Source: Candidatus Omnitrophota bacterium (lineage in GTDB: Bacteria; Omnitrophota; Gorgyraeia; Duberdicusellales; Duberdicusellaceae). From it: a stretch of DNA of 64,000 bases. Shown here piece after piece: positions 2,096 through 51,161 of this stretch. The notes below the pieces were generated by a model. It searched no databases and was not told where the DNA came from. It saw only the letters and a list, made by a program, of their open reading frames with translations. The stretch's first letter is position 1. Each line of letters opens with the position of its first letter. Location of the stretch: contig JAGGSQ010000042.1 of the NCBI GenBank assembly GCA_021159015.1, positions 557 through 64,556 on the forward strand, read 5' to 3'. The translations under genes and the position numbers were made by a program.

Positions 2096-2183
2096 TCTAT
2101 CAAAACCGCTCTTGTCTTACAACCCAAGAACTCACCTTGCCTTTTATGTCTTCTAGAACAATATAAAGAATTGTCTTAACCTC

Positions 2184-2203
2184 TGTCCACCGACAGGTGG
2201 ACA
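2184..2203. promoter_or_regulatory. perfect 20-bp palindrome TGTCCACCGACAGGTGGACA, ~90 bp upstream of the NTase-TPM-lemA unit
   Basis: Read directly in the sequence. It is an 8-bp stem with a 4-nt loop, or a dyad operator. On the plus strand it is followed by A6 and on the minus strand it is preceded by T5, so it is not a canonical intrinsic terminator for either direction. Confidence 0.3.
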
Positions 2204-2227
2204 AAAAAGGGTTAATAAAGAAGGGCT

Positions 2228-2686
2228 CTATTCTTTGACTACGAGGACAGGACAGGGAGCCTCGCGGAAGATTCTTTCTTCTTCGTCGTAGAATGAGTCT
2301 TTGCGGCTTAGGGCTTCCTCTAATTCCCCCATCACCAACAAATCAGCCCCAAGCTCTTGCGCCTTTTTCACTACTTCCTCATGTACTATGCCCCGCAAAA
2401 GATAAGTACTTACCTTAATATTCCTTTTAGCCGCCTGTTTCTCTAAAAACCTAAGAAATTTTTTTCCATCATTTATCAGGTCCTGTTCATATTCCTGCTC
2501 TTCCTTCTCCACAAAAACCTTGGCTTTAGTAAGCTCTGCCAAAGTCTTCTCATCTACTACATAAACCCCCGATAGCTCCCCTCCCGTAAGCTCAGCCAGA
2601 GACAAAGCATAACGCAGGGCTAAAAATGACTCTTCACTGCCATTAAGATAAAGAAGGATTTTCCTAAACTCAGGCTCATTTGCCAT
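2228..2686 (-). CDS. universal stress protein (UspA family)
   Basis: 152 aa. It shows the Usp fold signatures: VVDEKTLAE, GADLLVMG and a C-terminal PCPVLVV. It lies directly downstream of V-ATPase subunit D with a 1-nt gap. Confidence 0.75.
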   Translation of the reverse strand: MANEPEFRKILLYLNGSEESFLALRYALSLAELTGGELSGVYVVDEKTLAELTKAKVFVEKEEQEYEQDLINDGKKFLRFLEKQAAKRNIKVSTYLLRGIVHEEVVKKAQELGADLLVMGELEEALSRKDSFYDEEERIFREAPCPVLVVKE

Positions 2687-2687
2687 T

Positions 2688-3311
2688 TTATTCCCCCCTC
2701 ATTTTCTTTTTAATGAGTTTCTGAATGAAAAAACTCTCCCTTTCCTGCTCCTGCAAGAAAGCTTCTATATAGGAAATTGTTTCTCCGTAATCGGGCAAAT
2801 ATATTTTCTCTAAAGCATTTACCCGCCGCATAGTTTTTTTCACTTCTCGTGCCAGACGTAAAATGCTTACACGGTACTGAGCATATAAAGCTAGGTGATT
2901 TAAGCACTCTCTAAACTTGGCCATTGCCTCATCTACAGCCAGGCTTATTCTATAAGGGAAATAGAAAGGGGCAGTAGCAGACGAAGATATATTTAGGCGC
3001 GGCAAATCAACTCCCATTACTTTGTGAGAACCGATATTCACCTCATATCTTATATTAGAAGCACAAGCCAATTCTCCTAAAGACAACCGGCCCTCTTTAA
3101 CAATTGCTTGCTGCAGAGCACCATAGGCAGCTTCTAGAGCTTGGCCGAATTCACTTTCGGCCTTTTTAGCTCTTTCTTTCAAATTAAGCAGCTCGGCAAT
3201 AAGTATTTCTCTTTTATCTTCTAAGAGGCTGTGGCCTTCGGAAGCAAAAGCAAAGTTTCTTTTAGTTTTTAATAAATTAGTTTTAGTAGGCGCCAGCTTA
3301 TACTTAGCCAT
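2688..3311 (-). CDS. atpD: V-type ATP synthase subunit D
   Basis: 207 aa with the N-terminus MAKYKLAPTKTNLLKTKRNFAFASEGHSLLEDKREIL typical of the V/A-ATPase D (rotor stalk) subunit. Its ATG lies 2 nt after the atpB terminal TAA. Confidence 0.9.
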   Translation of the reverse strand: MAKYKLAPTKTNLLKTKRNFAFASEGHSLLEDKREILIAELLNLKERAKKAESEFGQALEAAYGALQQAIVKEGRLSLGELACASNIRYEVNIGSHKVMGVDLPRLNISSSATAPFYFPYRISLAVDEAMAKFRECLNHLALYAQYRVSILRLAREVKKTMRRVNALEKIYLPDYGETISYIEAFLQEQERESFFIQKLIKKKMRGE

Positions 3312-3313
3312 AA

Positions 3314-3508
3314 TTATCGGCCATAATATTTCTCTATTTCCTCTCCCGTTATGCGATGCAGCTCTTCTTTAGGCAGGATGGACAAGACTCTCCAGCCTAA
3401 ATCAAGACTTTCATAAATACCTCTTTCTTCTTCATAATCCTGAGAAAGAAACTTTTTCTCAAAAGCCTCACCAAATTTAAGGTAAATATGATCTAAGGGA
3501 GTTAGCTC
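3314..3508 (-). other. atpB: in-frame continuation of atpB (C-terminal 64 codons plus TAA), separated from the main ORF by the TAA at 3509-3511
   Basis: Same reading frame as 3509..4696, no other stop, and it ends TAA at 3314-3316 immediately before the atpD ATG. The translated content matches the conserved B-subunit tail. Confidence 0.7.
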
Positions 3509-4696
3509 TTATTCTCCAATTACCGACGCCAGTGCCCGCACGTCTTTAGTTTGAGAATAGGCAGCAAAGAGCTGGCTGGCCAGATGGGGATGGTCAGAGC
3601 GGGTTTTACCTTCTCCTACATTGTCTTTCATTAAGCGTGAGAGAGAAGGAAGTCCCGCAATAGGAGGATAAACTCCTTTTTGAGCCAGTTCTCTTTCCAG
3701 AACAATCTGCCCCTCCGTAATATAGCCGGTTAAATCCGGCACGGGATGCGTAATGTCATCATTGGGCATAGTAAGGATAGGAAGTTGAGTGATAGAGCCC
3801 GTAGCACTAGCTACCAGGCCGGCTCTTTCGTATAAGGAAGCCAGGTCACTATAGAGATAGCCCGGATATCCTTTGCGCGCGGGAACTTCTCCCCGCAGGG
3901 TAGAGACCTCTCTCAAAGCCTCGCAATAATTGCTCATATCTGTCATAATCACCAAAACATGATAATTCTTACGGAAAGCTAAAAACTCTGCCAAAGTAAG
4001 AGCGGAACGCGGCGTAGCCAGGCGTTCAATGGAAGGGGCATCGGCCAGGCTTAAAAAAATGGCTACCCTCTCCAGAACGCCGCTCTGGCGGAAATTGTCA
4101 ATAAAAAAGCGGGCCGTATCATATTTTATGCCCATAGCGGCAAACACCACGCAAAAGTTAGAATCTTCATCTACGATTTTTGCCTGACGCACAATCTGCG
4201 CGGCCAGGCGGTCGTGAGGAAGACCGGCGCCGGAGAAAATGGGCAATTTTTGCCCTCTTACCAAAGTATTCATAACATCAATGGCAGAAATCCCTGTCTG
4301 GATAAACTTCTCCGGATAGGTACGCGCTGTAGGGTTAATAGCTAAGCCGGAAACATCTCTCCGTTCCTCTTCCTTACCTAAGCCAAAACCATCCTGAGGA
4401 CGGCCCAGCCCGTCAAAGATTCTTCCCAGCATCTCTTCCGAAACTCCTAAATCTAAAGGCCTCTCCTTAAAAATCAGACGAGAGGACTTAAGACCTAAAT
4501 TGGCTGTACCTTCAAAAACTTGTACTACAGCTGCACCTTTTTCTACTTCTAAAGTTATGCCTAGACGCCTGTGGCCTTCCTCGTCAATTACTTCCACCAG
4601 CTCGTTATAGCCAACATCGTGGATATTTTTAATAAAAACCAACGGGCCTACTATCTCATTTAGGCCACGATATTCCTTCTCACCTCTAACGCTCAT
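3509..4696 (-). CDS. atpB: V-type ATP synthase subunit B (non-catalytic); ORF ends at an in-frame TAA and the conserved C-terminus continues in frame to 3314
   Basis: 395 aa ORF, homologous throughout to V/A-ATPase B. It stops after ASVIGE. The next 64 codons in the same frame (ELTPLDHIYLKFGEAFEKKFLSQDYEEERGIYESLDLGWRVLSILPKEELHRITGEEIEKYYGR) are the canonical B-subunit C-terminus. Confidence 0.85.
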
Positions 4697-6453
4697 TCTG
4701 CTAGTTCTTTTATTTCTTCTTTCATCTCTTCATATATTTCATCTAGCCTTCCCAAGTCCTCATTGGCGACAGAAAATTTCATGCGAGTTATCTTGCGATA
4801 AGCCGCTATCTTCTTCAGAAACACTAGCGGTACCCCCGCGCGTATTGCCTCTAGACCCCGACGATAGAATTCTACTATTATCTTAAGCATTTTAAACTGT
4901 TTGAGAGCGGGGGTGTAAGTATCTATCTTATCAAAAGCATTCTGCTGCAGAAAGGCAGTCTTGAACAAAAGTGCCGTCTCTAGAATAAGCTTCTGAGTAT
5001 CAGGCAGAACATCCGGCCCTACCAGTTTTACCACACTTTGAAGTCTGGCTTCCTTCTGCATCAATTCCATAATACTATTGCGATAGTCCAACCATTCTTT
5101 GCTGATATTTTCTGCATACCACGCTGCAATATCAGCGATATATTCCGAATAACTCTCCATCCAACTGATAGAGGGATAATGACGGGCATTAGCCAAATCT
5201 CTATCTAAAGCCCAGAAGGTGCGGATAAAACGTTTGGTATGTTGAGTTACGGGCTCTGAGAAATCCCCTCCGGGAGGCGAAACAGAACCAATAATTGTAA
5301 CCGAAGCCTCCCTTCCGGAAAGAGTCTTAACCATTCCCGCCCGCTCGTAAAATTCTGCTAAGCGTGTAGGCAGGTAGGCGGGAAACCCCTCATCAGCCGG
5401 CATTTCCTCCATTCTCCCGGAAAGCTCCCGCAACGCTTCGGCCCAGCGCGAGGTAGAATCAGCCATAACTGCTACATTGTATCCCATATCACGAAAATAT
5501 TCCGCAATGGTAATTCCGGTATAGATAGATGCCTCGCGCGCCGCTACCGGCATATTGGAAGTATTGGCAATAAACACAGTGCGCTCCGTAAGGGGGCGGC
5601 CGCTGCGGGGATCTATAAGTTTAGGAAAGCTCATTAGTACATCGGTCATCTCATTGCCTCTCTCGCCGCAGCCAATAAAAACTACAATATCCGCATCAGA
5701 CCATTTAGCCAATTGATGCTGAATCATAGTTTTACCCGTACCAAAACCGCCGGGAACCGCTACACACCCTCCTTTAGCTACGGGGAAAAGTATATCAATC
5801 ACACGCTGGCCGGTAATTAAAGGATATTTTAAGGCCAGCCGCTGGCGGTAAGGACGTCTTATGCGTACCGGCCAGCGCTGAAACATAAAAAGAGGAATCT
5901 CTCTATTTTCTTCCTTCAACACGGCTATGGTATCATCTAAAGTATAGTCTCCTTCGGAAACAATTTTTACTACTTCCCCCTCTACTTGCGGTGGCACAAG
6001 AATGCGATGTTCCACCAGCCCTGTCTCAGGCACTCTGCCGATTATCTCTCCTCCTCTTACTCTTTTGCCGCAAGAAACCTCCGGTATAAAGTGCCACTTC
6101 TTTTTGCGTACCAAGGCAGGAAAATGGACGCCTCTTTTTATATATTCTCCCTCTTTTTCTCTTATTAAATCCAGAGGCCTTTGCACCCCGTCATAAATAG
6201 TACTTACTAACCCGGGACCTAATTCTACCGAAAGAGGCATACCTGAACCATAAACTACAGCGTCCGGACGCAGGGAAGTAGTATCTTCATAAACCTGGAT
6301 TACCGCTCTATCTTCCTCCAAGTGCACCACCTCACCAATGAGGCGTTCGTTACCTACCTCTACTAACTCAAACATTTTGGCGGCCTGCATCTGGTAGCAT
6401 TCTACTACCGGCCCGCTCACTCTCCTTACTCTGCCAACAATATTAAGCTCCAT
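4693..6453 (-). CDS. atpA: V-type ATP synthase catalytic subunit A
   Basis: 586 aa with Walker A (PGGFGTGKT) and the non-homologous region typical of V/A-type A subunits. No intein is present. Its TGA stop overlaps the atpB ATG (ATGA). Confidence 0.95.
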
Positions 6454-7075
6454 AGAGTCTCTCGTAGACTATCTTTCTTATTTCGTTATAGGCCCGCCTC
6501 TGGCGTTGAGAGAAAGTATTATCAAATAAAACCCTTCCTTCTTTCTCTTCTACCACAGCTCCTAAATCTGAATAAACATCAGAAAAAACCACCTCTATCT
6601 CTTTCAAAAAAGAAAAAGACTGCCTTAAAAATTCCTCTAGCTCCGTTTTAAACTCCTCGCCCAGAGCTTCTTTCTCATAAGAGGAAACAATCACTCTTAT
6701 TCTCTCCTGGCCTAAAACCTCCACGCCTTCTTTAGCCAGCTGCTTAAGAGTGTCGCGGTAAAGAGGCCCGTGGCGGAAATTTTCTTTTTCCTCTTCTAAA
6801 GAAACCAGAACCTCCCTAAATACCTCTTCAAAACTAGATAGTCTAGCCCTTTTCTCCGCCAGTCTTAGATAAGATAAAACGCTTTTTTCTTTCTCCTGCC
6901 TGAGCTTATCTATTTTTTTTTGAAAGAGCTCTTCTTTTTCTTTGAGTTTTTCTTCTGCCCCTTTGAGTATAGACTCTGCCTTTTGCCGGGCCGCTTCCAC
7001 TATCTCCTCTGCTTCTTTCTTAGCAGCAGTTTCAATCTGGCGGCAGATTACTTCAACACTATTCTCACTGCTCAT
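6443..7075 (-). CDS. atpE: V-type ATP synthase subunit E
   Basis: 210 aa, E/K-rich with a coiled-coil N-terminus, in the position between F and A. Overlaps atpA by 11 nt. Confidence 0.75.
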   Translation of the reverse strand: MSSENSVEVICRQIETAAKKEAEEIVEAARQKAESILKGAEEKLKEKEELFQKKIDKLRQEKEKSVLSYLRLAEKRARLSSFEEVFREVLVSLEEEKENFRHGPLYRDTLKQLAKEGVEVLGQERIRVIVSSYEKEALGEEFKTELEEFLRQSFSFLKEIEVVFSDVYSDLGAVVEEKEGRVLFDNTFSQRQRRAYNEIRKIVYERLYGA

Positions 7076-7087
7076 ATTTCTTTCTCT

Positions 7088-7393
7088 CTATACTGATATC
7101 CCAATACTATCCTTTATCAATTCATCTATATTCTTTCTCTTTCTCTCTTTCCCCCTAAAAGACCTAATTTCCACCACAATAGGAAACCTGCCACTATAGA
7201 GGTGAATATTTATCTCCTCCCGCACCACCTCTGCCAACTCCTCGCTAATTAATAAGATTCCCACATCTTTAAGTAAAAGCGAGGAGGGGAAAAGATTCTT
7301 TATATCTTCCCTATTTTTCACTTCATATACCTCTACTCCTGCAAGCTTAAATCCTAAAGCTGTATCTCTATCCAGTAAAGCGTAAATTCTCAT
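7088..7393 (-). CDS. atpF: V-type ATP synthase subunit F
   Basis: 101 aa. MRIYALLDRDTALGFKLAGVEVYEV is typical of V-ATPase F. Confidence 0.8.
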   Translation of the reverse strand: MRIYALLDRDTALGFKLAGVEVYEVKNREDIKNLFPSSLLLKDVGILLISEELAEVVREEINIHLYSGRFPIVVEIRSFRGKERKRKNIDELIKDSIGISV

Positions 7394-7734
7394 TAAATCC
7401 GGCCGAGAATCATTATAGAAATAATTAAACCGTAAATGGCAATCCCTTCCGCCAATCCTACAAAAACTAAAACCTTGCCTGTAATCTCCGGCTTCTCGCT
7501 AATTGCCCCTACCGCAGCCGAGCCCACATAACTCACGGCAATTCCTGCCGCTAAAGAACTCAAGCCCGTAGCAATAGAAGCCGCCAAAAATCCCCACTTA
7601 ACTATGCTGCTATCTACTCCTCCTGCCGCGGCGGCCAGGCTCTTATGGGCAATAAAAATAAGACCCGCCAAAAAAGCCGGCAAAAAAGCTGCCCAAAACA
7701 TTTGTTGCTTCGTGACTCTTTTCTTCTTAGCCAT
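7393..7734 (-). CDS. atpK: V-type ATP synthase subunit K (proteolipid c-ring subunit)
   Basis: 113 aa hairpin proteolipid with Gly-rich helices and a conserved carboxylate in GLAEGIAIYGL. Confidence 0.85.
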   Translation of the reverse strand: MAKKKRVTKQQMFWAAFLPAFLAGLIFIAHKSLAAAAGGVDSSIVKWGFLAASIATGLSSLAAGIAVSYVGSAAVGAISEKPEITGKVLVFVGLAEGIAIYGLIISIMILGRI

Positions 7735-7757
7735 ACTGCCTCCTTCTTTTTAAACAC

Positions 7758-9698
7758 TCAAGATTCCTCTACCCTTAAGGGTTTGAATTCTTCTCCCTGG
7801 CGGTTAAAAAAACGAGAGAAAAACTCGTAATATTCAAGTCTTAGTACCTGGATAGTAACTACCAGTCCTTCTAAGAAAATTATAAATATATTGCCGAAGA
7901 CTATTACTAATCCTGAGCCCCAACTATTGCCGGAAGCCTTTCTTATTATATCAGCCAAGCTAAATATTGCAACGAAGAGGCCGATATGGGCTAAAGAAAA
8001 GGCGGCTATGCGGATAAAAGATAGCGTGTTAGTCAAATACCCCAAGAATATCTCAAATATCTCCATTAATTTTTCAAAAATATAAGCCAGAGCAGATTTT
8101 TTCTCTTTTTCTTCCTCACCGCCTTTCTGTATTAAAAACCTCTCGCCTAAAAAAACCATCAAACTCAAGAACAAAATTATGCCACAAGCATCAAAGAAAG
8201 GATTCCTCAAGCCTGCTATGAATCTAACTACTACCCCTAAAGAAGCCCAATAAATTACACCCGAAATTAATCCGGCTTTGTCAAAAAACAAACGGCGGTA
8301 ATCTCTAAATCTTAAATTATTAATTATGTTAATTATTATTCCGCCGGAAATAACCAGTACCCCAAAAGCAACCGTAAGTTTAAAAAGATAGCTTATGTTT
8401 TTAAGAGGCCTAAGCCAGAAAGCCGGTAGCACATTCTCAAAGCCAAAAAAGCTTCCGTAAAATAGGCCAAAAACTGCTGCCGCCATACCGGCTAAACTAA
8501 TAATAACACCGCTCTTTTTTATAATTTCCTTTTTCTGACGCCGCAGTAATAAGCCAGCCAACAGCAGCACTATACCCTGACCTAAATCGCCAAACATCGC
8601 TCCGAACATAAGCACAAACAACACTGCTACAATTAGCGTGGGGTCAATCATACCATAAGCAGGCACACCGTATATTTTTACCAAATTTTCAAACGGCGAT
8701 AAGAAAAAGGGGTGGGAAAACAATACCGGCACCCTCAGGCGCCCTTTCTTTACCAAAGAAATATCAGAAGCAGGGAGGCTTTCATAAAACAATCTCTGCC
8801 CGCAAATTCTCTCAAGAGCCACTCGCAATATCCTTTCCTTTTTCTCCGCTACCCAGCCAGAGATAAAATAGACATAATCGCTATGCGAGAAATACTCTCG
8901 CGCCTGCCAGAAAGCCTGCCATTTTTTCACAGAGAAAAAAACTGCTCTCATCTCAACCTCTATTTCTCGGCGCCAAGCCTCTATTTTCTCCTGCTCTTGT
9001 CTTAGTTTTTCCTCCAGATGCCTAATCTCTGATTCTATCTCCTGCTTCAATAAAGAAGTATCCTTAGGAGGGGTTTTTATTCTATTTAGTGCATACTTAT
9101 TAACGAGAGTATCTAGAAATTCTTGGTCTTTCTTCATTATTACCAATACAAAGCGTACTATTTCCCCATCTTGAAAATAAGGAACCAAAAGATGAATCAA
9201 AGAGGAAATTTCACGTTGAAAATTCTCCCAGTATCTGGCCTTTATTTCATATAAAGATATGTATATATAGGAATAACGGCGCGCCAGATTCATTTCCCAG
9301 CTGGGAAGCATTTTTATCTCGGTATAAATTTCCTCTTTTTCTTTCTTAAGACGCTCTATGCGTTCCTTCTCTAAAAGAAGCGGCCCTGACTTTTCCTCCC
9401 AAAAAACAACTTTTTTCTCTATCTGGGCCATATCTATATCCCTAAGCGCCTTGCCTTGAGGAGGCAGAAGCCTAATTTCTAATCTCTCAGCCAGACCTTC
9501 AATTCTCCTCTTTAGCTCGGCACATTTTTCTCTTTCGGCTGCGGTTGGCTCTTTATGAAGAAGAGATAAATCTTGGCTCACTTCTTTTATATCTAGAAGC
9601 TGAATTAGACCCAGTTTTACTAAAGAATCAGTAACTTTATCTATATCCTCTTTCAGAACCATCATATTTACTTCCCGCATGGGGACAAAATTCAGCAT
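7758..9698 (-). CDS. atpI: V-type ATP synthase subunit I (a-subunit, stator/proton channel)
   Basis: 646 aa with an N-terminal soluble coiled-coil half and a C-terminal multi-TM half that includes the conserved Arg-containing helix (LSFIRIAAFSLAH). Confidence 0.85.
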   Translation of the reverse strand: MLNFVPMREVNMMVLKEDIDKVTDSLVKLGLIQLLDIKEVSQDLSLLHKEPTAAEREKCAELKRRIEGLAERLEIRLLPPQGKALRDIDMAQIEKKVVFWEEKSGPLLLEKERIERLKKEKEEIYTEIKMLPSWEMNLARRYSYIYISLYEIKARYWENFQREISSLIHLLVPYFQDGEIVRFVLVIMKKDQEFLDTLVNKYALNRIKTPPKDTSLLKQEIESEIRHLEEKLRQEQEKIEAWRREIEVEMRAVFFSVKKWQAFWQAREYFSHSDYVYFISGWVAEKKERILRVALERICGQRLFYESLPASDISLVKKGRLRVPVLFSHPFFLSPFENLVKIYGVPAYGMIDPTLIVAVLFVLMFGAMFGDLGQGIVLLLAGLLLRRQKKEIIKKSGVIISLAGMAAAVFGLFYGSFFGFENVLPAFWLRPLKNISYLFKLTVAFGVLVISGGIIINIINNLRFRDYRRLFFDKAGLISGVIYWASLGVVVRFIAGLRNPFFDACGIILFLSLMVFLGERFLIQKGGEEEKEKKSALAYIFEKLMEIFEIFLGYLTNTLSFIRIAAFSLAHIGLFVAIFSLADIIRKASGNSWGSGLVIVFGNIFIIFLEGLVVTIQVLRLEYYEFFSRFFNRQGEEFKPLRVEES

Positions 9699-10723
9699 AT
9701 CACCAGCCTCTCTTTCTGAGTCCTATCTAAACCATAAAGACAGGAGTAAAAAATAGATATTACATTTTTCGTTTCTAAGTACTTGAGCACCAAAAAGGCT
9801 ACTACTACTGCTATACTAAAGGGATAGCCTCCTAGAGCCGCCCTGGCTCTCTGCATAAGAATATAAAAAAGTAAATATTCTATTTCTCCCCCCGCCGAAG
9901 AAGCCAACAGAGAAGGCTCCCCGGACCTTATCTGTAATTTACTTAGAAAATATTCCAGAAGGTCTGAGCTATCTTTTAAAAATGCCTCTTGCATATCTTC
10001 TTTTTTAATCCGGCCCGTCTCGCTGATAAGATGATGCTGAAGAAATTCTTTGCTGCCACGGTAATATTTTCTCGTCCGCAAGATAAAAGAAACGTTGGCT
10101 ATATCTATTTCCAATCCCCAGATTTTCATAAGCGCCGCTCTTTCTGAAAGAGGCAAAGTTTTAATAAGGGAAACGGTGCGCTTCAAATAATCCTTTTCCA
10201 AAGCCCATTCTAAATAAAATAAATTATTAAACTGTTGAAAATCACTTTTAGCTTCCACCAGAGCCTTCATATAGGGAGTATCTTTCAGGAGGAGAATAAA
10301 GTCATTAATATTTGCTGCCCGCGGCAACTTCTCAGTATCAAAATGAAAACAAATATCTGAACTTACCCAGGATACCCCACCTGCTTTGTCTTTATTAAAC
10401 CAGACCCGCAATATGGCCTTTAGCTTATCTAAATCATATCTCTCCAGAAACATTTCCACTATTTTTTTCTCTCTCCCTTTTAAATGCTTAATTAATTCCT
10501 TGTGTAAAGTTATGTCTTTCTCCCAAATAATTCTTTCCCTTTCTTCTGGCTCCATTTCTGAGGCAAACATTTCTTCATAATACGTACCGGCCAATTGCAA
10601 AGCAAGCTCTGATATGTTCCCAGCTTTAAGAAGAGACTTTAACTGCTCACAGGAAAGAAGACGGCTTTCTTTAGCTTTGACCTTGGAAAAAATAAAACTA
10701 TAGCGGGCTGGTCCAGCCATCAA
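9692..10723 (-). CDS. atpC: V-type ATP synthase subunit C (d-subunit)
   Basis: 343 aa, helical, overlapping atpI by 7 nt. Its operon position and size fit V-ATPase C/d. Confidence 0.7.
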   Translation of the reverse strand: MMAGPARYSFIFSKVKAKESRLLSCEQLKSLLKAGNISELALQLAGTYYEEMFASEMEPEERERIIWEKDITLHKELIKHLKGREKKIVEMFLERYDLDKLKAILRVWFNKDKAGGVSWVSSDICFHFDTEKLPRAANINDFILLLKDTPYMKALVEAKSDFQQFNNLFYLEWALEKDYLKRTVSLIKTLPLSERAALMKIWGLEIDIANVSFILRTRKYYRGSKEFLQHHLISETGRIKKEDMQEAFLKDSSDLLEYFLSKLQIRSGEPSLLASSAGGEIEYLLFYILMQRARAALGGYPFSIAVVVAFLVLKYLETKNVISIFYSCLYGLDRTQKERLVIC

Positions 10724-11031
10724 ACTCCTAATATTTTTTTAAACACTGCTTCAACAATCTGCTTTTTCTGTCCCCTAAAAACCTCTTTTACTCTATCTAT
10801 TTCATCTTTAACTCTTTTTTGGTAGGCGTTTTTCTTGTTCTCTAAGTCAGCTTCCATCCTGGTTATAGCTTCTTTTTCTTGCTGCAAGAGTAATTTTGCT
10901 TGCTCACTTTCCATCTCGGCTGCCCTCTTTTGAGCCTGGTGAATAGTTTCTTTTGCTTTTGCTTCCGCCGCAGCCTTGATTTGCCGCACTTCTTCCTCCT
11001 TCTCTAATATCTGTTTTATCTCTTTATCCAT
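10720..11031 (-). CDS. V-type ATP synthase subunit G/H (peripheral stalk, coiled coil)
   Basis: 103 aa, E/K/A/Q-rich predicted coiled coil (EKEEEVRQIKAAAEAKAKE...). It is the first gene of the operon and overlaps atpC by 4 nt. Confidence 0.6.
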   Translation of the reverse strand: MDKEIKQILEKEEEVRQIKAAAEAKAKETIHQAQKRAAEMESEQAKLLLQQEKEAITRMEADLENKKNAYQKRVKDEIDRVKEVFRGQKKQIVEAVFKKILGV

Positions 11032-11045
11032 TCTCCCTGCCCCCT

Positions 11046-11294
11046 TTAATATATTTTTTCATACTTACCTTTATCTACCCGTTTTAATTTATGGAATCCC
11101 TTCTCTTTAGCCTTCTGATCAAAGCCACTCCGGGAAAACCCCACCGAAAACGGCGCATATACTTTTACTACTTCATTACCACAACGGGGACAATATTTCA
11201 ATACCGCCCTCTTCTTCTCAAATATTTCAAATCCTTGCCGACAATACTCACAACTTTTTTCTCTTTCCTTGGCCCGGTAACAATATATTGGCAT
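11046..11294 (-). CDS. FmdB-family zinc-ribbon protein
   Basis: 82 aa with paired CxxC motifs (CEYCRQ ... CPRCG). Confidence 0.65.
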   Translation of the reverse strand: MPIYCYRAKEREKSCEYCRQGFEIFEKKRAVLKYCPRCGNEVVKVYAPFSVGFSRSGFDQKAKEKGFHKLKRVDKGKYEKIY

Positions 11295-11971: not shown

Positions 11972-13842
11972 TTTCCTAAAATTTTCTTTAAGTGCTCTCT
12001 AACAATTTTATCATTCTCCAGACACTTTAAAAAACTCTTTTTTCTCTGCCACACCTTAAGCTCCTGCGGCAAACTATCGGCGCTTATCTGCCTAACATAC
12101 CCTCCTTGAAGTAAAGAGCCCAGGAATCTTTTGTGTTTAGAACTTTGAGAGGCGGCTGAAAACAAATCTATAACAAAGGTATCTCTAGAAGAAGCAGCTT
12201 CTGTAATCATAGATATAGAATCAGCCGAGACAATTAAGCCACTTGATAAAGCTCTTATGCCGGAAGCAGCGAAATCATAGTTCTTTTCATTGGCTATAAG
12301 AAGAAACAGCGTATGGCTGAAATGAGAAAACTCCTCTTTCAGTTTCTCTTCCAGCCACAGCGGCGTACGGCGGGAAGTAGTAATGAGCAGCCCTGCTCTT
12401 TCAGATAGGGAAAATGCCTTAAGGCTCTGGATAAACTTCTCACATTCCTTCTTACTTCTTTCAGAAGCGGACTTTTTTAAGGGAGCACCTATAAATATTC
12501 CTATTTTCAAAGAGAAATCCTTCTGCTGCCAGAGATAATTGCGTAATCTATCCCCTGCTTTTTCCTCTTTTTCTGAAGAGATAAAATGCAGGGCTCCTTT
12601 TATCCGCAACACATTTTTCCTCTGAGAAAACTCATCATGCTCAGGAATAATTATTAAATCGTATCTCTTCCTTGCACTATTAGGCCGTAATATCTGAAAG
12701 GTCTTAGCGCCCATAAATAAAGCAACCAAGCGCGCCAGGCTCGCTGTGGTAGAACCACAGCTAATAAAGATATCTCCGTAATGAAAAACTGCATTAAAAC
12801 TTTTGCCCAATATTATTTTCAATGCCCAAAAACCTAAATTAGAAGGAGAACGCAACAGGAGATTAACAATATCCAACACCACTTTCTGCCCTCGCCTGAG
12901 TCTTAACTCAATTAGTCTCACTTTTGCAGGCCTAACTTGGGAAATAATCTCTGCTAAAGACAAAGCTTGGTGTCTGTGTCCGGCTTTTGTGTCACTAAAT
13001 ACTACCAGCTGGACGTCTTTGGCTCTTTTAAAGCGCTTATAAGCCCACAAGAATCCGATAGGGTTATCACGAATAAATTCTTCGAAACAACGGTTGAGGT
13101 AATTTGCTACAGGAGAAAAATCTTCTTCTTTTTCCAAAGCTACTGGCCTAAATAATTTTATTAAATGTTTAGTGCCCTTGCGTTTTACTACCACCGGAAT
13201 AATTTTTCTCTTAAAACGCCAGGCCAGACGCAGAGGACCTATAGGCACAGGCACCTGACGAGAGAAAAAAGCGGCGTAAATTTTAGCCCTGCGTGCCCCA
13301 TGATCAAACACTAAGCCCAGATTAATGTTCTGACGCATAATCCGGCTTAAGCCTTTTAAGTCGTCCTCATAAATAATCTTAAGGTTGTATCGCCGACGAA
13401 TGAGATTGACGAATTTATCTAAGGCCTTGTTTTTCTGGCGACGTACAATAATGGCGTAAGGAATATTGAGAGCGAAATAACTATTCACTAGCTCCCAACC
13501 TCCCATGTGCACCCCTACAAGAATACGGCGTCCTTCTTTAAGCTCTTGCCATGCTTCCTTCCCTTCCTCTATTTCCACTTTTTCTTTGAGGCTCTCTCCA
13601 TCCGTATATCGCAAGCGTAAAAACTCCCAGAAACCCAAGGCACTCTCAAAAAGATTCTCGTAAGCTATTCTTTCAATCTTTTTCATAGCTAAATCAGGAA
13701 AAGCCAGACGCAGATTAGCTATTATTAAGAATTTGCGGCGGCAAAATATATAATAAAGAAAGCTCACACCGCGCAAGACAAAATAGCTTACTGACCAGGG
13801 CAAAATATAAACTATTCTAGAAATAAGATCTAAAGAGTTCAT
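11968..13842 (-). CDS. lipid A biosynthesis acyltransferase (LpxL/HtrB family) fused to a C-terminal ELM1/DUF1022-like domain
   Basis: 624 aa. The first ~300 aa have N-terminal TM helices and the lauroyl/myristoyl acyltransferase fold (HMGGWE, region around FDHGARRAKIYAAFF). The last ~320 aa resemble the bacterial Mito_fiss_Elm1-type domain. The gene follows waaA-lpxK with overlapping stop/start. Confidence 0.6.
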   Translation of the reverse strand: MNSLDLISRIVYILPWSVSYFVLRGVSFLYYIFCRRKFLIIANLRLAFPDLAMKKIERIAYENLFESALGFWEFLRLRYTDGESLKEKVEIEEGKEAWQELKEGRRILVGVHMGGWELVNSYFALNIPYAIIVRRQKNKALDKFVNLIRRRYNLKIIYEDDLKGLSRIMRQNINLGLVFDHGARRAKIYAAFFSRQVPVPIGPLRLAWRFKRKIIPVVVKRKGTKHLIKLFRPVALEKEEDFSPVANYLNRCFEEFIRDNPIGFLWAYKRFKRAKDVQLVVFSDTKAGHRHQALSLAEIISQVRPAKVRLIELRLRRGQKVVLDIVNLLLRSPSNLGFWALKIILGKSFNAVFHYGDIFISCGSTTASLARLVALFMGAKTFQILRPNSARKRYDLIIIPEHDEFSQRKNVLRIKGALHFISSEKEEKAGDRLRNYLWQQKDFSLKIGIFIGAPLKKSASERSKKECEKFIQSLKAFSLSERAGLLITTSRRTPLWLEEKLKEEFSHFSHTLFLLIANEKNYDFAASGIRALSSGLIVSADSISMITEAASSRDTFVIDLFSAASQSSKHKRFLGSLLQGGYVRQISADSLPQELKVWQRKKSFLKCLENDKIVREHLKKILGK

Positions 13843-23901: not shown

Positions 23902-24745
23902 ATTTTAAGATAGCGCGGTAAAGAACGGTTTCTTTACCTTCCAGATTTCTATCCAACCATATCTCCAAAGAACGCAGACCTTGATAAATTAGCATCCACA
24001 ACCCGCTCACAACCCTTGCTCCCTTACGGCGGGCAACCTTTAGAAGTTTTGTCTCTAAAGGATTATAAACCAAATCATACACTAAGACTCCTCTTTTTAT
24101 CAGTGCCGCGGGAATAGCTAAAGGGTCGGAAGGATGGAGCCCTAAAGGCGTAGCATTTATAATCAGGTCCAAAGAGGGAAGATTTTTTTTATTTACGGTT
24201 TTAAGATTCTCTACCTGAGTATGAGAGAAGAAGTTTTTAAGACGACGCCTCAGCTTCTGTGATTTTTTATAATTTATGTCATATATACCTAAAAAATCTA
24301 TCTTTTCTTTCAAAAGATACATGCTTATGGACTTAGCTGCCCCTCCTGCTCCCACTATCAAACATTTCTTTCCTGCTGGATTGAAAGAAGCCTTTTCCTT
24401 AAGAGACTTAATAAACCCTTCGCCATCAGTATTGTAGCCAATTAAATGTCCCTGCTTAACCTTAATAGTGTTAACAGCGCCTATTTTTTCTGCTAAGGGA
24501 TCAATGCGATACAAAAAATCCCTAACTCTTTCTTTATAAGGGAAAGTAACATTCACACCCCTTAGGCCTAAAGCAAGAATACCTCCTGCAGCCTCTTTCA
24601 ATCTATAAGGCTCTACTTCAAAGAGAAAATATTCGGCATAAATATTCTCTCTCTGGAAGAAGTAATTATGCATAAGGGGAGAGAAAGAATGCAAAAGTTT
24701 GCGTCCTACAAGCCCAAATATATCTTTTTTATTTACGGTCTTCAT
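23888..24745 (-). CDS. aroE: shikimate dehydrogenase
   Basis: 285 aa with NTDGEGF and the NADP-binding motif GAGGAAKSI. Confidence 0.85.
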   Translation of the reverse strand: MKTVNKKDIFGLVGRKLLHSFSPLMHNYFFQRENIYAEYFLFEVEPYRLKEAAGGILALGLRGVNVTFPYKERVRDFLYRIDPLAEKIGAVNTIKVKQGHLIGYNTDGEGFIKSLKEKASFNPAGKKCLIVGAGGAAKSISMYLLKEKIDFLGIYDINYKKSQKLRRRLKNFFSHTQVENLKTVNKKNLPSLDLIINATPLGLHPSDPLAIPAALIKRGVLVYDLVYNPLETKLLKVARRKGARVVSGLWMLIYQGLRSLEIWLDRNLEGKETVLYRAILKYVRN

Positions 24746-30233: not shown

Positions 30234-31121
30234 TTACACTATCTCACTATGCAGCCAGCGGTAAACCGTCACTCTGTCCACGCCCAACTTCTTTGATATT
30301 TCCAAAATAGAATATCCTCTGGCTAACAACTGCTCTACCAAATAAACCAAAGCTTTTCTGTTTTGAGGAAGACGGGGAAGCTTTCTCCCTTTAATTCTCT
30401 GCATCTTTTTCTCTATTTCCCAAAGATTACTAAATAATTTACTCGACCCCAAAAACATCTTCTTATTTCTTCTCGCCCATTTAATTACTTCTTCATAGAG
30501 CTTTTTTATTGACTTCTTCCCTTCCATTGTTCTGATACTAAAAGATATTTTGCTCATATCTTTGACAAACTTTCTATAGGCAGCCTTAGCTTTTTTGGTG
30601 CTAGAAGGATATACCTCTTCTAAAATTGGCAAAGGGTTAACAAATGAGCTCTTTACATTCTTGACGTATATATCCAAAGAATGCCAATGATATTGAAAAG
30701 GAGAAGTAACTATTCTGGCCCGGTAAGCATTAAGATGTATATACAAAGAGATGGTAAGAAAATAATCTGCATCGTTGCATAGCGCTGCTCTATATCTTCC
30801 CGAAAAAACATGTCCTTTTCTTTCGTATTTGCTGTTAAAGTATAAAGCGTATCTTTTGAATAATTCCTGCATTGCTTTTGACAAGAGATTGTTTCCTGTG
30901 CGAAGCAAGATATGTAAATGATTGGTAAGCAGAGAGAAAGCATATACCTCCAATGAGAACTTAGCAGAAGACTCTTTAAGAAGAGAAATAAACTTAAGAT
31001 AGTCTGACTCCTCCAAGAATACTTTCTCTTTTCCGGGAGCCCGCTGAGTAATATGATATACTCCCCCCTCTATTATAATTTTATTCTGCACTCTTAATAT
31101 CCTCTTCTTGCCTCTATCCAT
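30234..31121 (-). CDS. IS200/IS605-like Y1 (HUH) transposase, RAYT-like, with C-terminal helix-turn-helix extension
   Basis: 295 aa. The N-terminal ~140 aa carry the Y1_Tnp hallmarks (YHITQR, the HUH motif HLHILL and GHVFSGRYRA with the catalytic Tyr region). The C-terminus carries an HTH (ISKKLGVDRVTVYRWL). Identical hairpins flank the gene. Confidence 0.75.
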   Translation of the reverse strand: MDRGKKRILRVQNKIIIEGGVYHITQRAPGKEKVFLEESDYLKFISLLKESSAKFSLEVYAFSLLTNHLHILLRTGNNLLSKAMQELFKRYALYFNSKYERKGHVFSGRYRAALCNDADYFLTISLYIHLNAYRARIVTSPFQYHWHSLDIYVKNVKSSFVNPLPILEEVYPSSTKKAKAAYRKFVKDMSKISFSIRTMEGKKSIKKLYEEVIKWARRNKKMFLGSSKLFSNLWEIEKKMQRIKGRKLPRLPQNRKALVYLVEQLLARGYSILEISKKLGVDRVTVYRWLHSEIV

Positions 31122-31266: not shown

Positions 31267-34200
31267 TTACGACGGTGCGGGAAAAGGAGGTAAAGATTGT
31301 TGATAAAATGCAGTTTTACGCTTTCTCTTCTCTTTCTTCTTTTGGTCTTCGTAGTACTGGTAGAATTTGTTCTTGTCTTTGAGTTTGAGGCTGTTTTCAA
31401 TAAATTCATAAGCTCCCACATCTAAGCGTATGTCGTCAAAAGCAGAAGTATCAGTGGGAGTTAAGGGATGATAAGCATAAAATAAAGGTGTGGCCGGTTC
31501 AAAGGAAGCGAAGCGATAACCGCTAAGAGATTCGAAATAATCTTCCTTAACCTTTGCTGCTTCTTGCTGGTAACGGGGATTGTTGTAAAACTTATGGCGG
31601 TATTGGGCAATGAAAGGTTTATGCCTGCTTACTACCAACTGTGCGAGCCGCTGGTAATCAGCATTACTCTTAGGAGACCAGATTTGCTTGGTGTTAAAAT
31701 AGACAAAGCCCGGAGGATTTAAGGGCTGGGGGAAGCGAGTAGGTATAAGTATAGGGGTATTTAAAGGCGTAATTGTTCCCACTAAATTGCCATAAATTTC
31801 TCTAGTGGGATAGGTAATGGAGAGGTTAGAGATATCTAAATACAGGTCTCCTTTAATAGAGACATTTAAGGGTGTCCCCACAGGGCTAATCTTTCCATTT
31901 GGCGCATTTAAAAAAGAATCCTTTACTGCTGCCACATGCGGACCCGCATTTTCGGCAAGGATCGAACCATTTTCTGCTGTCAGGCGGACACCTGATTTTC
32001 TGGACTGGACTGTTCCGGTAATGGTTATATCCCCAGCAGGAGTTAAGAGATTTATAAAGCCGTCAGAGATAATGCGGTTTATAACAATCGGACCATGAAC
32101 TGTCAGGCCTATTCTGCCACCAGCAGAGATATTATTGAAAGTAACACCATCCATCTCCTCAAGGTATAAATCGTTCCCTGCTACCGCATTAATCGTATTT
32201 GCCCATATGTCAATATCGCCGTTAAAAACGGACATATCTCCTATATTATCCTCAGCCTTTAAATCTACCAAATCACCGCGAATATAGTTGGTATCAGCGG
32301 GGTCAACAAACAAATCGTCACAGATACTGCCCGAGGCGGCATTCAGGTAAACATCACTATCCCCCTTAGCCTGGATATCTCCGACAAAAAGGTCTGAATG
32401 TGTTGTAATATGAATGTCTCCTCCCTCATTGTCCACATGTTTGGCATATAAACCTCCGGTATTGTCTATCACAATGTTCCCCATCCGGGAATTGTCAGCA
32501 ACAAGCATATTTGACCTCGTATCAAGGTCTATACCTTTTTGTGCGTCAATATGAAGTTCATCAGCTGCCACATCGCGGGCAGGAACACCATCCTGCGTAA
32601 TAGAGCCCTGTTTTGCCGTCAGGAAAACATCATTTTTTGTGCCGGCATCTATCCATATTGCCTTAATTCCTGAAACAATGCTAGTTAAACTGATATCATT
32701 GGCATCATTATCCGTGAAAGATGTCTCAACATCTGTGGCGGTTATTTTTCCAAGCGCACTTATGGTTACCGAACCATTGGAAGCTATAACTTTGGAAAGG
32801 TCAATATCATCCCTATCGTAAAACGTTATATTCCCCGCCTTTTTGGAGCGGGCAGTCAAACTGTTTACATCATTATTAAAGTGAAGCATTGTTATATTTC
32901 CGGCCGCAGTCGCAAAAAGGCCTGAAGAATTGACAAAGGCATTGCTTTGTATTATGTCTCCCTTGCCGCTTCCGTCATAATCAGCATTTATATATATGTC
33001 GCCTGCTGTAATAATATTGCCGGAGACCTGTTTAAAGTCACTGCCTGAGTTTAATGTAATAATCCTACCTGCACCACTACTGGTAATATTTGCATAAACT
33101 GAAAGAATATCGTCGTCTCCTCCATCTTCTGCCGCCAACAACGTTATATTTCCACCCGAAGAAACAGGGCTCAATACATTAAGAGGAGAAGCCGCAGATA
33201 TATTAAGCTTTCCCCTGGTATTCACTGCTGAAAATCCATCATTATTAAGATCTAAAAGGTTCAATGTTCCGGTATTGGCAATACCAACGGCATTATCAGT
33301 ATTTACTACGTCAAGGTTCACCACAGTTGTTTCTATAGCATCATTTTCTCCAATACCCGACTCAGCCCTGAGTTTCAAATCTTTCGCCGTAATATTATTG
33401 GAATTGCCATTTGCATCAGTAATTGCCCCATATGCCCTTATATCGGCATTTGTTCCGCAAGATACTGAATCTACTGCTATTTTCCCCAATGCCGTAAGCT
33501 TCAGCGCCTGACCTACAGACACATTGCCTAAAGTGACATTATCCTTTTCACCAATAAAGGCACTGCCAGATACATTAGAAAGGTTTAATGTATCTACACC
33601 TATATCCAGCCAATTCAACTCTCCGGCAGAACCAACATTGTTTGCCTTCATAATGTTCAATGTGCCTGCCGTAAGATATTTACCATCGTTTGAGGTATCG
33701 ATTATGTCCCCATCCGCATTAAGTGTAACAGCATGAGAACCGGCATTAACTGAGCCGTTTAGTCTGATATCATCAGAGGACCTAAGAGACACATCTCCCG
33801 AAGCTGTTATAGTGTAATTACTGAAAAGATTTAAATTGCCACTGGTAGTAGAAATATTTATGCTTCTTGCAGATATATCTTTTAAACTCAATGCCCCACC
33901 AGAAGAAACCTCACTTATATAAATATCGCCGGCACCATTATTAACTGCAACATAAGAAATTCTGGTATCTAAAGCATCGTTGCCTGCCGCCCCAACATTG
34001 CCTGCATTATTCATTATTAATCCATCCGCCCAAATATAACTTGTGTTATCTGTATCCAAAATATCCGCTCCTGCCGGATTAAGTCGAACAAGCTTGCCCT
34101 TCGCATTGAGATTGGCTCCAAAAACCATATTTCCTTTAGAAAAGAAATCAACGTCATCGCCTGCAGACGTATCTCCTATAATAGAGAGGCTGCCCATACT

Positions 34201-37200
34201 GTATATTCGCAACCCTTGTGCTATATCTGAAACACCAACATTCAAATCTTTATTAGAGAAAAGATTGGCGCTTCCCGCATTAGTATGCATATTTAAAACT
34301 CCATTGGCATCAGTGAGTTCTACATCCAAAGCACCGGCATTGCCTAACGGATTTCCAATAGAGTTAAAGGCATTAAGTTCTATATTGTCCGCATAGATAT
34401 TTGTAGTGGAGTCGTCCAGCCAATCAAAAATGGAGCCGGTATCTGCTTTTATCCATGCCTTCTGCCCGCTATTTATCACATCTAAATAAATATCTCCAAG
34501 TGGTTTCTCCAGATAAATATCGCCGGAAGCCCTGGCTGTAACATAAGGCTTGTCCCCGCTCAGTGCAATTCTAACGGGTGAACGCACCGTCCCTATCTGC
34601 CCATTTGAGGCCTCCAAGATAATACCATTAGAAGCAACCATATTTGAGAAAGCGTCGGGTCTAGGATTAAAGATTCTCCCGCCTACCTTCACTCTAACCC
34701 TGTCTCCAGCATTCAGGGCATAAACATTTATGTCATGTTCGGACCCGAGGAAGATATGCCCGGTTGCAGTAAGGAAGACATTTTCTGAGGCATGCACATC
34801 CAAGTCCTCCCTGCGGTGAATAACAAGCTGGTTTGCGCCCCATTCCAAATCGTCGCGTTCGGCTGAAGCAATGGCAAGCTTTATTTCATCTATCTCAGCA
34901 TCAGTATAATTCTTAGAAAAGACAAAGATTAAATCGTCTTTATCTTTGCCTATTTCCCCGCCGGCAACCACAGTAACATTTCGCCCGACTATATTGGGGT
35001 CTTCTATGGATAATGTAGTATCTTTTGTTAAAACAAAACTTGGCAGCCCGCCTTCCAGCTGTTTCTGGGTCCAGAAGTAACCACTGCTTAAATCATCTTT
35101 CTCTTTGTCTGAAAGGGAATACGAGAAATCGGGGTCAAAATCCGTCTGCCCCCACGTCCGATACTTATCCGTCATATCATTTTCTAAATCCTTAATGTCT
35201 TTATCACTCCAGCCGGATTTTTTCAGGCTGTCTCTCTCGCTCTGAGAATAATGAAATTCAACATTCGGGTCATATGCGTCCCAGGAATATGTGCCGTCGG
35301 AATTTCTCTTCAAGTTGCGTTCCTTACTCCAATAGCTTTTATATGCCTCGTTCATAGTATTACTGTAGGCATCCCATTGCGACTGCTTTTTATTTTCAGC
35401 ACCGGCGCCGGTAAGCTGCATATCATTCCACAAAGCAAGCAACTCACTTTTTGTACGGGTATCGGCCTTTTCATTTGAGTTGGCATCTATAATATCGCCA
35501 GGGGCAAATATATTCACGTCACCGGAAGCAGAAACCTTATGTATGGCAAGGTCTCCGGAAACCTCCATAAGGTTTATATCCCCTTTAGCGGATATTACGT
35601 CTATTACTCCTCCATTTGCCGCATCGGTATCAACGCGCAAGACATCCAATGGAGCACCAATAGTGCCGGTTTTAGCCTCTAAGTAGATATTTTTCCCTTT
35701 TATAATAGAAATGCTATTCGAAAGAAGCAGATTATCGTTTGCTATCAACCCCACAGAACCACTCCCCGTAACAAGATTGGTAACGAATAAATCGCCGTTG
35801 GGAGATTCAATATATATGTTCTTGCCGGCAAGAGCATTGAGAGTATTGCCTCCTGAATGGGTTATCTTAAAATACATATCTTTTTTGCCAATACTGCCAT
35901 TATTGGCCATTAGATTTATTTCGCCGCTTTTTACGCTTGAAAAACTGGATTTTGAAAGTATACTGCCGGCAGATGAGGTCAAATTTGTGACTCCCCCTAC
36001 ATTATTGAGGTTGCCTCCCAACCGGATATCACCGACACTATTTACAGAAACCTGGCCGCGGTCATATCCAATAAAGGACACATCTATTGGCAGATCGGCC
36101 TTGACGGAATGATAGTTGTATGTATTAGTCCCTTTATCCCAGATTTGAGTACGTCTCCACCAGGTCTTCTTTGCCGGATATGGGGGATGCCACCAGCTTC
36201 CCGGATGCCAATACCAGTAGGTCCCTTCAGAATCGTCCTGGTGAATCAGGTCGTTTTTAGTCGTAACCGTCAACCTCTTATAGGTATAGTCTGCCGCATG
36301 CTTTTGGCCTACAAAATCTCCCTGAGGAAGTTCGTCCCCCGATAAAATTCTCGTCTTAGGATACCCGCTTACATAATCACTGCTTGAAAAATGCCTTTCG
36401 CTCACCGGGATGAACCCTAAGAATTTGTCATGTTCTTTATACCATTTTTTTATGGTCTGGGACGAAGTCGCCTTGCCCGTCATCCAGAAATAGCGCATAT
36501 TCTCAAGTGGCTGATAAATTGCATCTCTGCCAGTCGCTATAGATTTTAACTGCGTGGCAACCGTACTGTTTACGCCGCTATTGGTAAAAATGCGGATTTG
36601 GTTGCCAAGACGTTCATATCTGGTTACAAACGAAAGCCCTGTCCCGTTGTCCTTTGCCTTGTCGATTAAAATCACCTGGCCTTCAGCGCCTCCTGTATCC
36701 ACATCTTTAAGAACAACGGGGAGGCTTGTCTGATTATCAATATTTATCCTCCCATACCCGTCCAAAACGTTAATCTTACCATCTCCGGTACTGACAATTC
36801 TGCCGGAAATAAATACCAAACCGCCTCTTACCTGCGCACCCAAAATCCGTATTTCGTTATCCCGGGCATCCAATTCAGCGGATATTCCGCCAACTACCAC
36901 CCTGCGGCTTGGGTCAAGGCTTTCATCAACCTTCAATATCTGCACAAAACGTTTGCCGGTTCTATTCGCCTCATTATAGGCCGCCTCAACATCGGCCTGA
37001 GTAATAACAATAGCTTTATCCGGCAGGCCGCTCTGTATGACACCATTTATATTTACTGTATCGGCATTTATGTAAATATTGTTCCCAGCTATCTGAAAAC
37101 TATTTGAAGGAGATTGGCCTTTATACGCAGGCTTAACCGGCCAATTATTTTCATAGGCCTCGGCAAGATACTTAAACCCCGCCGCGGGATTCGGGCCAAT

Positions 37201-40200
37201 GTTATAAAGCGTCTCCGGAGAATCAAATATAAAGTCCCCTCCCGCCGACAATTGTATGGTATCCGCGCGTATGCTGGATGTAGCAATGATACTTCCTGTA
37301 TCATTGCTGATGGAAACCATACCATTAATATTGTTAATAGGCCCGGATATAAAAAGCGCCGGATCCGATAAATCCGGAATATTATCAGGATTGTATACGC
37401 CTGAATTTTTATCAAAATTATTCTTTACTTCAATAAGAGGAGGCAAAGAATCCTGGGCATCCTGCAAAGTAAAGTTGACAACAGTACCTACCGGTGCGCC
37501 GTCATTTAACGCGCTTATTCCAGAAGAGTCTCTTACAACGTGATTGTTAAACTTGATTTTTCCGCCCAGGTCATCGGGAATAGTAAGGCTGTCCAATTTT
37601 ATAGGCAAAGGAGAATTGTTTATTATTCTAATTTTGACATCTCCGGGAGCAATAATCTCTCCTGTCCCGACAAGATAATCTCCCCAAATATTCACATCTC
37701 CGGAAGCGGCATAAGCCGGGTTTACCTTTATTATGTCCACATACTCGTCATTGCCCTGGCTGTTTAACTGGGCTTTCAAAATATTTATGCGGGTGTTTAT
37801 ATCCTGTGCCAGTTCCGAGTTTGCACCATATTGATTTTTCAAATTTTCCAGCCGGTCTATTTCCTGCTGTATATTGTCAACTATACGCTGGTCTGTAAGA
37901 ACCGTCCATGAAATTCCTTCGCTCTGCTGATCAGGGACAAGAATCCTAAGCCTGTTTTCCCCGTTATAAACAGCCCAAAAACCATTTTCGGCATCATAAC
38001 CAATTGTATAGCGCCCCTTGGTGCCATCATCCTTTTTATAATAGGGATTAAACATATTCGTCCCAAAGGTAAGGAATAGATCTCTATAAATCCCTGTTTC
38101 TAACTTTCCTTCCAAGATAATACTCCCTTTACCCTCATTAACAGAATGTCCACCTAATGTATCAAAGGCACCATCAGCATCGGTGCCAAAAAGTTCTATC
38201 AGCTTCTCCAAAGCATACCTTGAGGCATCGCTGGCCTTGCCGTTGCCGTTGGCAAAAAGTAATCCCTTTGCAGCATTTATATACATATGGCTTCCAGAAG
38301 CTATACGGGAACCGCTCTTTATATTAATCCCCGCATTATGCCTCGCAGTAGCATCTGCAGTCGGAGTACCACTATAAGCAAAAGCTGTTTTGTTAAATAC
38401 ATCCGTGTTGGCTTTTACACTAAATAAACTCACCGTATCCGTATCTGCACCTGCCATAAGATACATCTGTTTGGAAGCAATAACCTCGCTGTTATTTCCA
38501 AAGATAAGAGTATCATCAGAATCTGCCAGTGCTTTCGATTCGCCCTGTCCTGCTGATGCCAAACCATAAGTAGAGGTATTTGCCTGCGCTTTCATATCTG
38601 CATTGGTTCTGGCAAAAAACTTAACATCCCCCAAAGACTTCAAAAATGCCCCGTCTCCTATATTAATGGAAGCATCTACAGGTTGAGCCGTAATAAAACT
38701 TTCTGATTTTGCCAAAGAAATAAAACCTGCTGCATCCAATTTTACTTTGTCATATAGATACAAATCGTTCAGAGCACTTACCTCAATATCAGATGTGGTA
38801 TCTGCGTCATCATGCATCTGGATTTTTGCATTATTCCCTATATTAACTTTTGTATGAACAGAGACGTCTGTCTTGCCGCTTGCAGCCGCTCCGTTAAAAA
38901 CCCCTCCTGAACCCGAAATAGCATTATAGTCTGACAACCATGGTTTCCAAACCGTAGTGGATGCACCTATCTTTACAGAATCTGATTTAATCTGTGTATT
39001 GCTGCCTATATCCACCGTTGTAAGGGCGTTCGCTTTATTGCTCGACCATGCTCCAGACTTACCAACTACGCTAACAGCCGAACTGTCAGTCTTGCTGTTA
39101 AACTTGGTTTCCTGATCCGCCTTTACATCAAATTCATCAGATTCTATTTTCTTTCCATTGCCTCCAGAACCGATATACCCTTCAGTAGTGCTCACATTTA
39201 CAGTCTCAGCTTTGGCTGCAACACCTGACAACGCCCCTGCCGTCTTGGCAAAAGATTCGGCATAAGCATCGCTTTTACCTTCAGCATAAACACTTATTTT
39301 GCCGGCATCTATATCAACCTCTTCCCCTATGCCAGCAGTAGTCTCAATATTTGCTTTTGCACTGCTAAATGCACCGCCTATCCCCAACAACCCAAGAGCA
39401 AAACCGCCGGCATATGAATCAATATCAGTGGAATCGCTGCTGGTTATAGAAAGATTGTTTTCTATGTCAGCACTTGAACCGTCGCCCATATAGGCAAATG
39501 TCCTGCTCATAGATCCGGAAGACGATTTGTTTAATTCAGACTCAACAGAAACGTTATTTATATCACTCTTGACATCGGTCCCCTGAACATCATCAACATA
39601 GCCGTCAACCTTATTTGCGCTGGCCTGCTCCTGCGAATATGAAGCCGTATTGCCTGATTCATCACGGCTGTCTCCCGATAAATCCGCACCGGCCAATACA
39701 ATTGAAACAGCCCCTGTAATACCACATGCCAGACCGCCTGATGCGGATATCACCTTTGAATTGACAGATTTCTCAGAAACAGCTCTAATCTCCAGATTAT
39801 CTGCCGTTACAGTATTGTTTGTTCCCAAATATGCGCCGGTATCGGTGCGAATTACATCGACATCGACTCCGGCTCCTACACCAAGCCCTATACTTAAAGC
39901 TCCTCCCCCTGTCTTACTGGAAACATTCACAGTATCCTCTGCTTTCACAGAAGAATCACTGCCAGCATCAATATTTACACCATCCTTGGTATAAACATGT
40001 GTTTTTGAAGTAACAACATTTACAGAAACAGAGCCGGCAACCCCGGTCAGCCCACCGCCTGCCCCGGCAACAGTAACCGAATCTATTGTCTCCGAAGAAT
40101 CGGCATTTATATCCACATCTTTTGCGGATTTGAGATTCGTATTTGAATCAGCGTGGGATTCTGTAAAATTATTAATAGTAACAACCGAAACAGCCCCGCC

Positions 40201-51072: not shown

Positions 51073-51161
51073 AAGCCAATAGACAAAACACACTATCCGT
51101 TACTTCGGCAGCTCGGCTATCCGTGGTATTAAACTTACCTTTAGATCCGCAGCTTTGCGTC

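Follow-up and report, generated by a model that had tools for sequence, protein, structure and literature searches.

A TAA codon private to one assembly interrupts the subunit B gene of an Omnitrophota V/A-type ATPase operon

Introduction

Does a stop codon inside a conserved gene record an error in the sequence, a recent mutation, or a way of decoding that a standard translation overlooks? The question is raised by atpB, the gene for the B subunit of a V/A-type ATPase, in a 64-kb stretch of DNA from a hydrothermal-vent Omnitrophota bacterium (the window, by which we mean the whole stretch analysed). A preliminary description of the window listed three options for the TAA that interrupts this gene: a sequencing or assembly error, a recent nonsense mutation, and site-specific readthrough. 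In our analysis the last of these is strongly disfavoured, whereas error and recent nonsense mutation both remain. The change itself is one G-to-T substitution, private to the window's assembly, in an otherwise normal atpB. Its explanation is ordinary.

The interrupted atpB gene and its operon

Translation of the minus-strand frame from 4696 to 3314 gives 395 codons, a TAA at 3511..3509, 64 more sense codons and a second TAA at 3316..3314. The one uninterrupted ORF of ∼460 codons expected of a subunit B is therefore absent from the window, with the premature TAA (3509..3511, minus strand) standing at codon 396. The 5′ part of the gene (3509..4696, minus strand; 395 codons plus the premature TAA), as delimited by the ORF list, translation and Pfam, covers the N-terminal beta-barrel and the nucleotide-binding domain and runs ∼37 residues into the C-terminal domain, and its product matches PF02874, PF00006 and then positions 2–38 of PF22919 (V/A-ATPase C-terminal domain). 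The in-frame tail (3314..3508, minus strand; 64 sense codons plus the natural TAA) encodes the remainder of that domain, reads ELTPLDHIYLKFGEAFEKKF...EIEKYYGR, and matches PF22919 at positions 40–101 (E=4.7e-18). Because one match covers positions 2–38 and the other 40–101, the stop replaces exactly one residue and leaves the frame unchanged. The domain order of a V/A-type ATPase subunit B (beta-barrel, alpha/beta nucleotide-binding domain, V/A C-terminal domain) is present across the two pieces.

These results bear out the preliminary description, which had reported an ORF ending at an in-frame TAA and had recognized the C-terminus of a B subunit in the 64 same-frame codons beyond it; its coordinates and frame reconstruction were correct. 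It had also described the frame as running exactly to the start of atpD, which is accurate to within 2 nt, the atpD ATG (3311) lying 2 nt past the natural atpB stop.

The closest known counterparts of the B protein are the V/A-type B subunits of Enterococcus hirae (NtpB, PDB 3VR2 chain D) and Thermus thermophilus (PDB 3A5C/3W3A). Once Glu is put in place of the stop, the window's protein aligns with NtpB from end to end (residues 7–458; E = 2e-169). The NtpB residue aligned to the stop is the Ser of GESALS, where the window's clade has an invariant GEEELT.

The neighbouring genes, all on the minus strand, form the usual V/A-type set. The gene for the V-ATPase D subunit, atpD (2688..3311; Pfam PF01813), follows atpB and has no Shine-Dalgarno-like motif within the 15 nt before its ATG. 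The gene for the catalytic A subunit, atpA (4693..6453; identified by Pfam), precedes atpB, and its TGA overlaps the atpB ATG as ATGA. Genes for the E, F, K/c, I and C/d subunits, together with a 103-aa ORF without a Pfam match, occupy 6443..11031, and all are intact. By Pfam, the operon is complete for a V/A-type ATPase (C/d, I, K/c, F, E, A, B, D), and comparison with sister contigs revealed no private disruptive changes in its remaining genes. The 103-aa ORF lies at the head of the operon (10720..11031, minus strand) and may encode a G/H-like stalk subunit. An 82-aa ORF, also at the operon head (11046..11294, minus strand), has a weak zinc-ribbon match (PF09723) that falls below the curated cut-off.

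Codon 396 in other assemblies and homologues

The disabling change in the window's atpB is evident against intact orthologues. Ten conspecific contigs from several samples align gap-free to the window at 98.0–99.94% nucleotide identity; nine come from JGI sample 3300017593, ENA ERZ23499370 and ERZ23499350, and Logan SRR14000033 and SRR14000037, and the tenth from the JGI metagenome Ga0180301. SRR14000033 is counted among deep-sea hydrothermal datasets (PMC12202869). All ten contigs read GAA (Glu) at codon 396, as does every relative, which directly confirms the proposal that a single G-to-T change turned GAA into TAA. At least 22 contigs on record encode full-length variants of atpB.

Protein comparisons point the same way. 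The read-through B protein, used as a query, matched thousands of V-type B subunits; among the matches listed, names that specify a taxon are Omnitrophota or Omnitrophica, with one assigned to the PVC group. Its 90%-identity cluster holds seven variants, each of 460 aa with Glu at 396, and the closest of them differs from the window's atpB at two positions only, 382 and 396. All 126 homologues that we aligned have Glu at position 396, within an invariant GEEEL motif, so the position was rightly described as a conserved Glu. At position 382 every one of them has a basic residue (Lys, His or Arg). The homologues are 459–471 aa long and none is truncated or split. The comparison with relatives that the preliminary description had suggested thus finds the stop neither in the ten conspecific contigs nor in the 126 homologues. 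The atpB tail differs from the sister contigs at synonymous positions only, with no amino-acid change, which indicates that no decay has followed since the stop arose. In this species the V/A-type ATPase operon is clearly intact and subject to purifying selection.

Exact protein look-ups found neither the 395-aa truncated product nor the window's atpA, which carries a private Thr-514, on record. Since both look-ups were empty, the window's own assembly is absent from these collections, and the missing TAA allele there carries no weight alone. An exact 41-mer scan for an independent TAA allele, with K at the variable base, gave no match in GTDB representatives and one match in JGI metagenome contigs, which reads GAA. 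The best related loci in GTDB representatives are in Omnitrophota MAGs that are only ∼73% identical.

In JGI sample 3300017593 at least five separate contigs cover the operon (L001, L003, L005, L006 and L009 among them) at 99.5–99.9% identity. This multiplicity points to strong heterogeneity among strains or to an assembly pooled from many sub-samples.

Recoding, readthrough and split genes

TAA ends 23 of the 53 window ORFs of at least 120 aa, including atpD and a 6608-aa gene, and across the 56.6 kb compared no other gene carries an in-frame stop relative to the population. The earlier argument that TAA is a true stop elsewhere in the window, making genome-wide recoding unlikely, therefore stands. 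We discard a change of genetic code on the same two grounds, stop-codon usage and the lack of any other interrupted gene, as far as a 64-kb window allows.

A B subunit that is naturally split, with the 64-aa piece made separately, would be consistent with the intact tail, as would genome-wide reassignment of TAA; the intact tail is the one observation in favour of either. Against them stand the unsplit homologues and, for reassignment, the stop-codon usage just described. The first in-frame ATG, GTG or TTG available to start a downstream piece is a TTG 42 codons past the stop, leaving 22 aa, and a split gene or reinitiation is rejected on the absence of a nearby in-frame start. We regard both ideas as barely credible.

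The sequence that bears on programmed readthrough or hopping is GGAGAATAAGAGCTA. On either side of the stop is a Glu codon (GAA-TAA-GAG), and a single tRNA-Glu could read both, so that matched take-off and landing codons are present, and the downstream frame is intact; in these two respects the site is like known cases of tRNA hopping or programmed readthrough. Such a take-off/landing geometry was reportedly worked out for stop-hopping in E. coli reporter work by Weiss et al. in 1987. The TAA might accordingly be real and partly bypassed, by near-cognate readthrough or by peptidyl-tRNA-Glu hopping from GAA to GAG, with some near-full-length B as the product. The likeness is one of local sequence only, and the GAA-TAA-GAG geometry follows from mutation of the middle codon of an EEE motif, which makes it a coincidence of sequence. 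The conservation expected of a programmed site is lacking in all ten conspecific contigs and all 126 homologues. A 131-nt stretch spanning the stop and its downstream sequence shows no stimulatory RNA structure: its minimum free energy is −26.6 kcal/mol, and that of shuffled sequences averages −25.9 (z = −0.22). The RNA sequence 3′ of the stop is also present in relatives with GAA. The 64-kb window contains no tRNA genes, and hence no suppressor tRNA gene. Moreover, a hop would remove two residues of the invariant EEE motif. TAA is generally the least leaky stop in bacteria.

We consider it very unlikely that the atpB TAA is a recoding signal. That a real TAA is partly bypassed appears highly improbable, and the narrower claim, that a low level of bypass at GAA-TAA-GAG leaves the strain with some functional B subunit, a shade more so; even bypass and the other readings of this section taken together amount to a slim chance. 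If bypass did occur, it would be a natural stop-hopping rescue of a core bioenergetic gene in an uncultivated bacterium.

Private variants across the window

The remaining question, error or recent mutation, was approached through the other differences that set the window apart from its relatives. Two further exact-protein look-ups extended the comparison to the whole window, giving 26 sister loci; 56.6 kb of the window is covered by three or more of them. In those 56.6 kb the window has no indels and 11 private single-nucleotide variants (SNVs). Eight of these are transitions, six of them synonymous, and they fall in small clusters (4912/4914, 24164–24236 and 58055/58058). Clustered private transitions of this sort are the signature of real strain variation or of recombination tracts.

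The other three private SNVs are transversions, and all are non-synonymous: E396* (3511), H382Q (3551) and N1667I (46094). The first two both lie in atpB, with H382Q 40 bp upstream of the stop; at codon 382 (3551..3553, minus strand) the window reads CAA (Gln), and all sister contigs read CAT (His). The third is an AAC-to-ATC change (Asn to Ile) at codon 1667 of the giant gene discussed below, and belongs to the same odd class as the atpB pair. For comparison, non-synonymous transversions make up 6 of the 171 private SNVs in two sister lineages that have diverged naturally (L010 and L026). At that rate, three or more among 11 private SNVs would be expected with P ∼0.006, and under random placement two of the three would fall within 40 bp of each other with P ∼0.004. 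The stop belongs to a small, distinct class of variants that look unfiltered by selection, and it probably arose together with H382Q in one local event. Such a pattern fits either an error of consensus or amplification or a very fresh mutation.

Two other sources of the atpB pair were rejected. Recombination from a divergent allele would require a donor with these residues, and both are absent from all 126 homologues. Mutagenesis of the diversity-generating retroelement type does not fit either, as the changes are G>T and T>A on the coding strand and are not adenine-specific.

A separate patch of variants distinguishes the window from its nine closest contigs at the 3′ end of atpA (4912..4972) and at 8307 in atpI. 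The L010 lineage (98% identical) has the same variants at 4945, 4963, 4972 and 8307, and the patch is synonymous except for Ala514Thr. It looks like a short recombination tract between strains.

Sequence error or recent null allele

We favour the view that the stop is a technical artefact (an error of consensus, low coverage or amplification) and not a mutation, with a probability of roughly 0.55. A single local error during sequence production would have brought in both the TAA and the CAT-to-CAA change 40 bp away, and the organism itself would have GAA at codon 396 and make a normal 460-aa B subunit, as in every other assembly of the species. Several observations favour an artefact: the odd changes are all transversions, two of them are clustered, and these two strike an invariant and an always-basic residue. 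The closeness of the pair suggests one local event, for example a poor segment of a read. All other assemblies are intact, and comparable noise is seen in one sister contig, L006. The case resembles internal-stop pseudogene calls or consensus errors in MAGs and single-cell genomes, in which one substitution likewise disrupts a conserved gene that is intact in conspecifics, is private to one assembly and is followed by no further decay. Against such ordinary cases, the only unusual detail of the window is the second private non-synonymous transversion 40 bp away.

Some features sit less well with an artefact. Elsewhere the window is very clean, free of indels and poor in private SNVs, unlike a generally error-prone assembly, and de Bruijn-graph assemblers working at normal coverage seldom let an error from a single read into a long contig. 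Two linked SNVs inside one k-mer length are equally compatible with a real haplotype, and very young real mutations are likewise enriched for non-synonymous changes.

The clean assembly also favours the alternative, a real, very recent nonsense mutation in a strain or cell lineage, with atpB a fresh null or pseudogene allele encoding a 395-aa B. The other private SNVs resemble genuine strain variation, which implies a distinct strain; the two linked changes could represent one multi-nucleotide mutation event; and the intact tail and operon suit a very recent origin. Omnitrophota have V-type, F-type and Rnf systems in varying combinations, and only some have V-type ATPases (PMC10066038), so loss of the complex might be tolerated. 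Yet the other contigs are all intact (the ten aligned, and the at least 22 on record with full-length variants), and the residue hit is invariant, in a gene plainly subject to purifying selection. That all three odd changes are transversions, two of them clustered, suits an error better than a spontaneous mutation. An ATPase-deficient strain would also need to be abundant enough to assemble into a contig of at least 64 kb, and the further decay or relaxed selection expected of a pseudogene after the lesion was not found, the tail changes being synonymous only. We therefore hold a real null allele to be a serious but tentative second reading.

The sister contig L006 (JGI 3300017593 Ga0187538_158447) aligns to window positions 13128..13794 and 2139..2577, with dense private mismatches towards both ends. 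Near the contig end, within a cluster of mismatches, a private transversion introduces a stop (window position 13793), and the contig diverges completely beyond window position 2577. This pattern looks like contig-end noise or a chimeric join.

Consequences of the stop

Were the stop real, the B product would lack ∼65 of the ∼100 residues of its C-terminal helical domain (about two thirds). Translation of atpD, whose ATG lies 2 nt beyond the natural atpB stop and is preceded by no Shine-Dalgarno-like motif, would probably become uncoupled from that of atpB, and atpD expression would probably fall. The V-ATPase complex would most likely be non-functional, and tolerance of its loss would depend on other ion-motive ATPases in the genome. 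A real stop would mark a natural V-ATPase knockout strain in a hydrothermal-vent Omnitrophota population, mildly useful for studying whether the complex is dispensable there.

The biological weight of the atpB stop is little, and it should be treated neither as recoding nor as evidence of a lineage without a working V-ATPase. Its value is for annotation, where atpB can be flagged as 'internal stop, private to this assembly, verify with reads'.

A giant ORF and its neighbours

The 6608-aa ORF (31267..51093, minus strand) is intact and has no Pfam match in either half. Sister contigs contain it as well, with a called length of 6601 aa. In Omnitrophota, giant ORFs are reported to be common (PMC10066038). 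Directly upstream is a gene for a 596-aa ShlB/FhaC-type transporter with POTRA domains (PF03865, PF08479; 51296..53086, minus strand), and the transporter and giant ORF together resemble a two-partner secretion (TpsB-TpsA) pair. A Y1-type (IS200-like, PF01797) transposase gene, as labelled by Pfam on sister contigs, directly follows the giant ORF at 30234..31121 on the minus strand.
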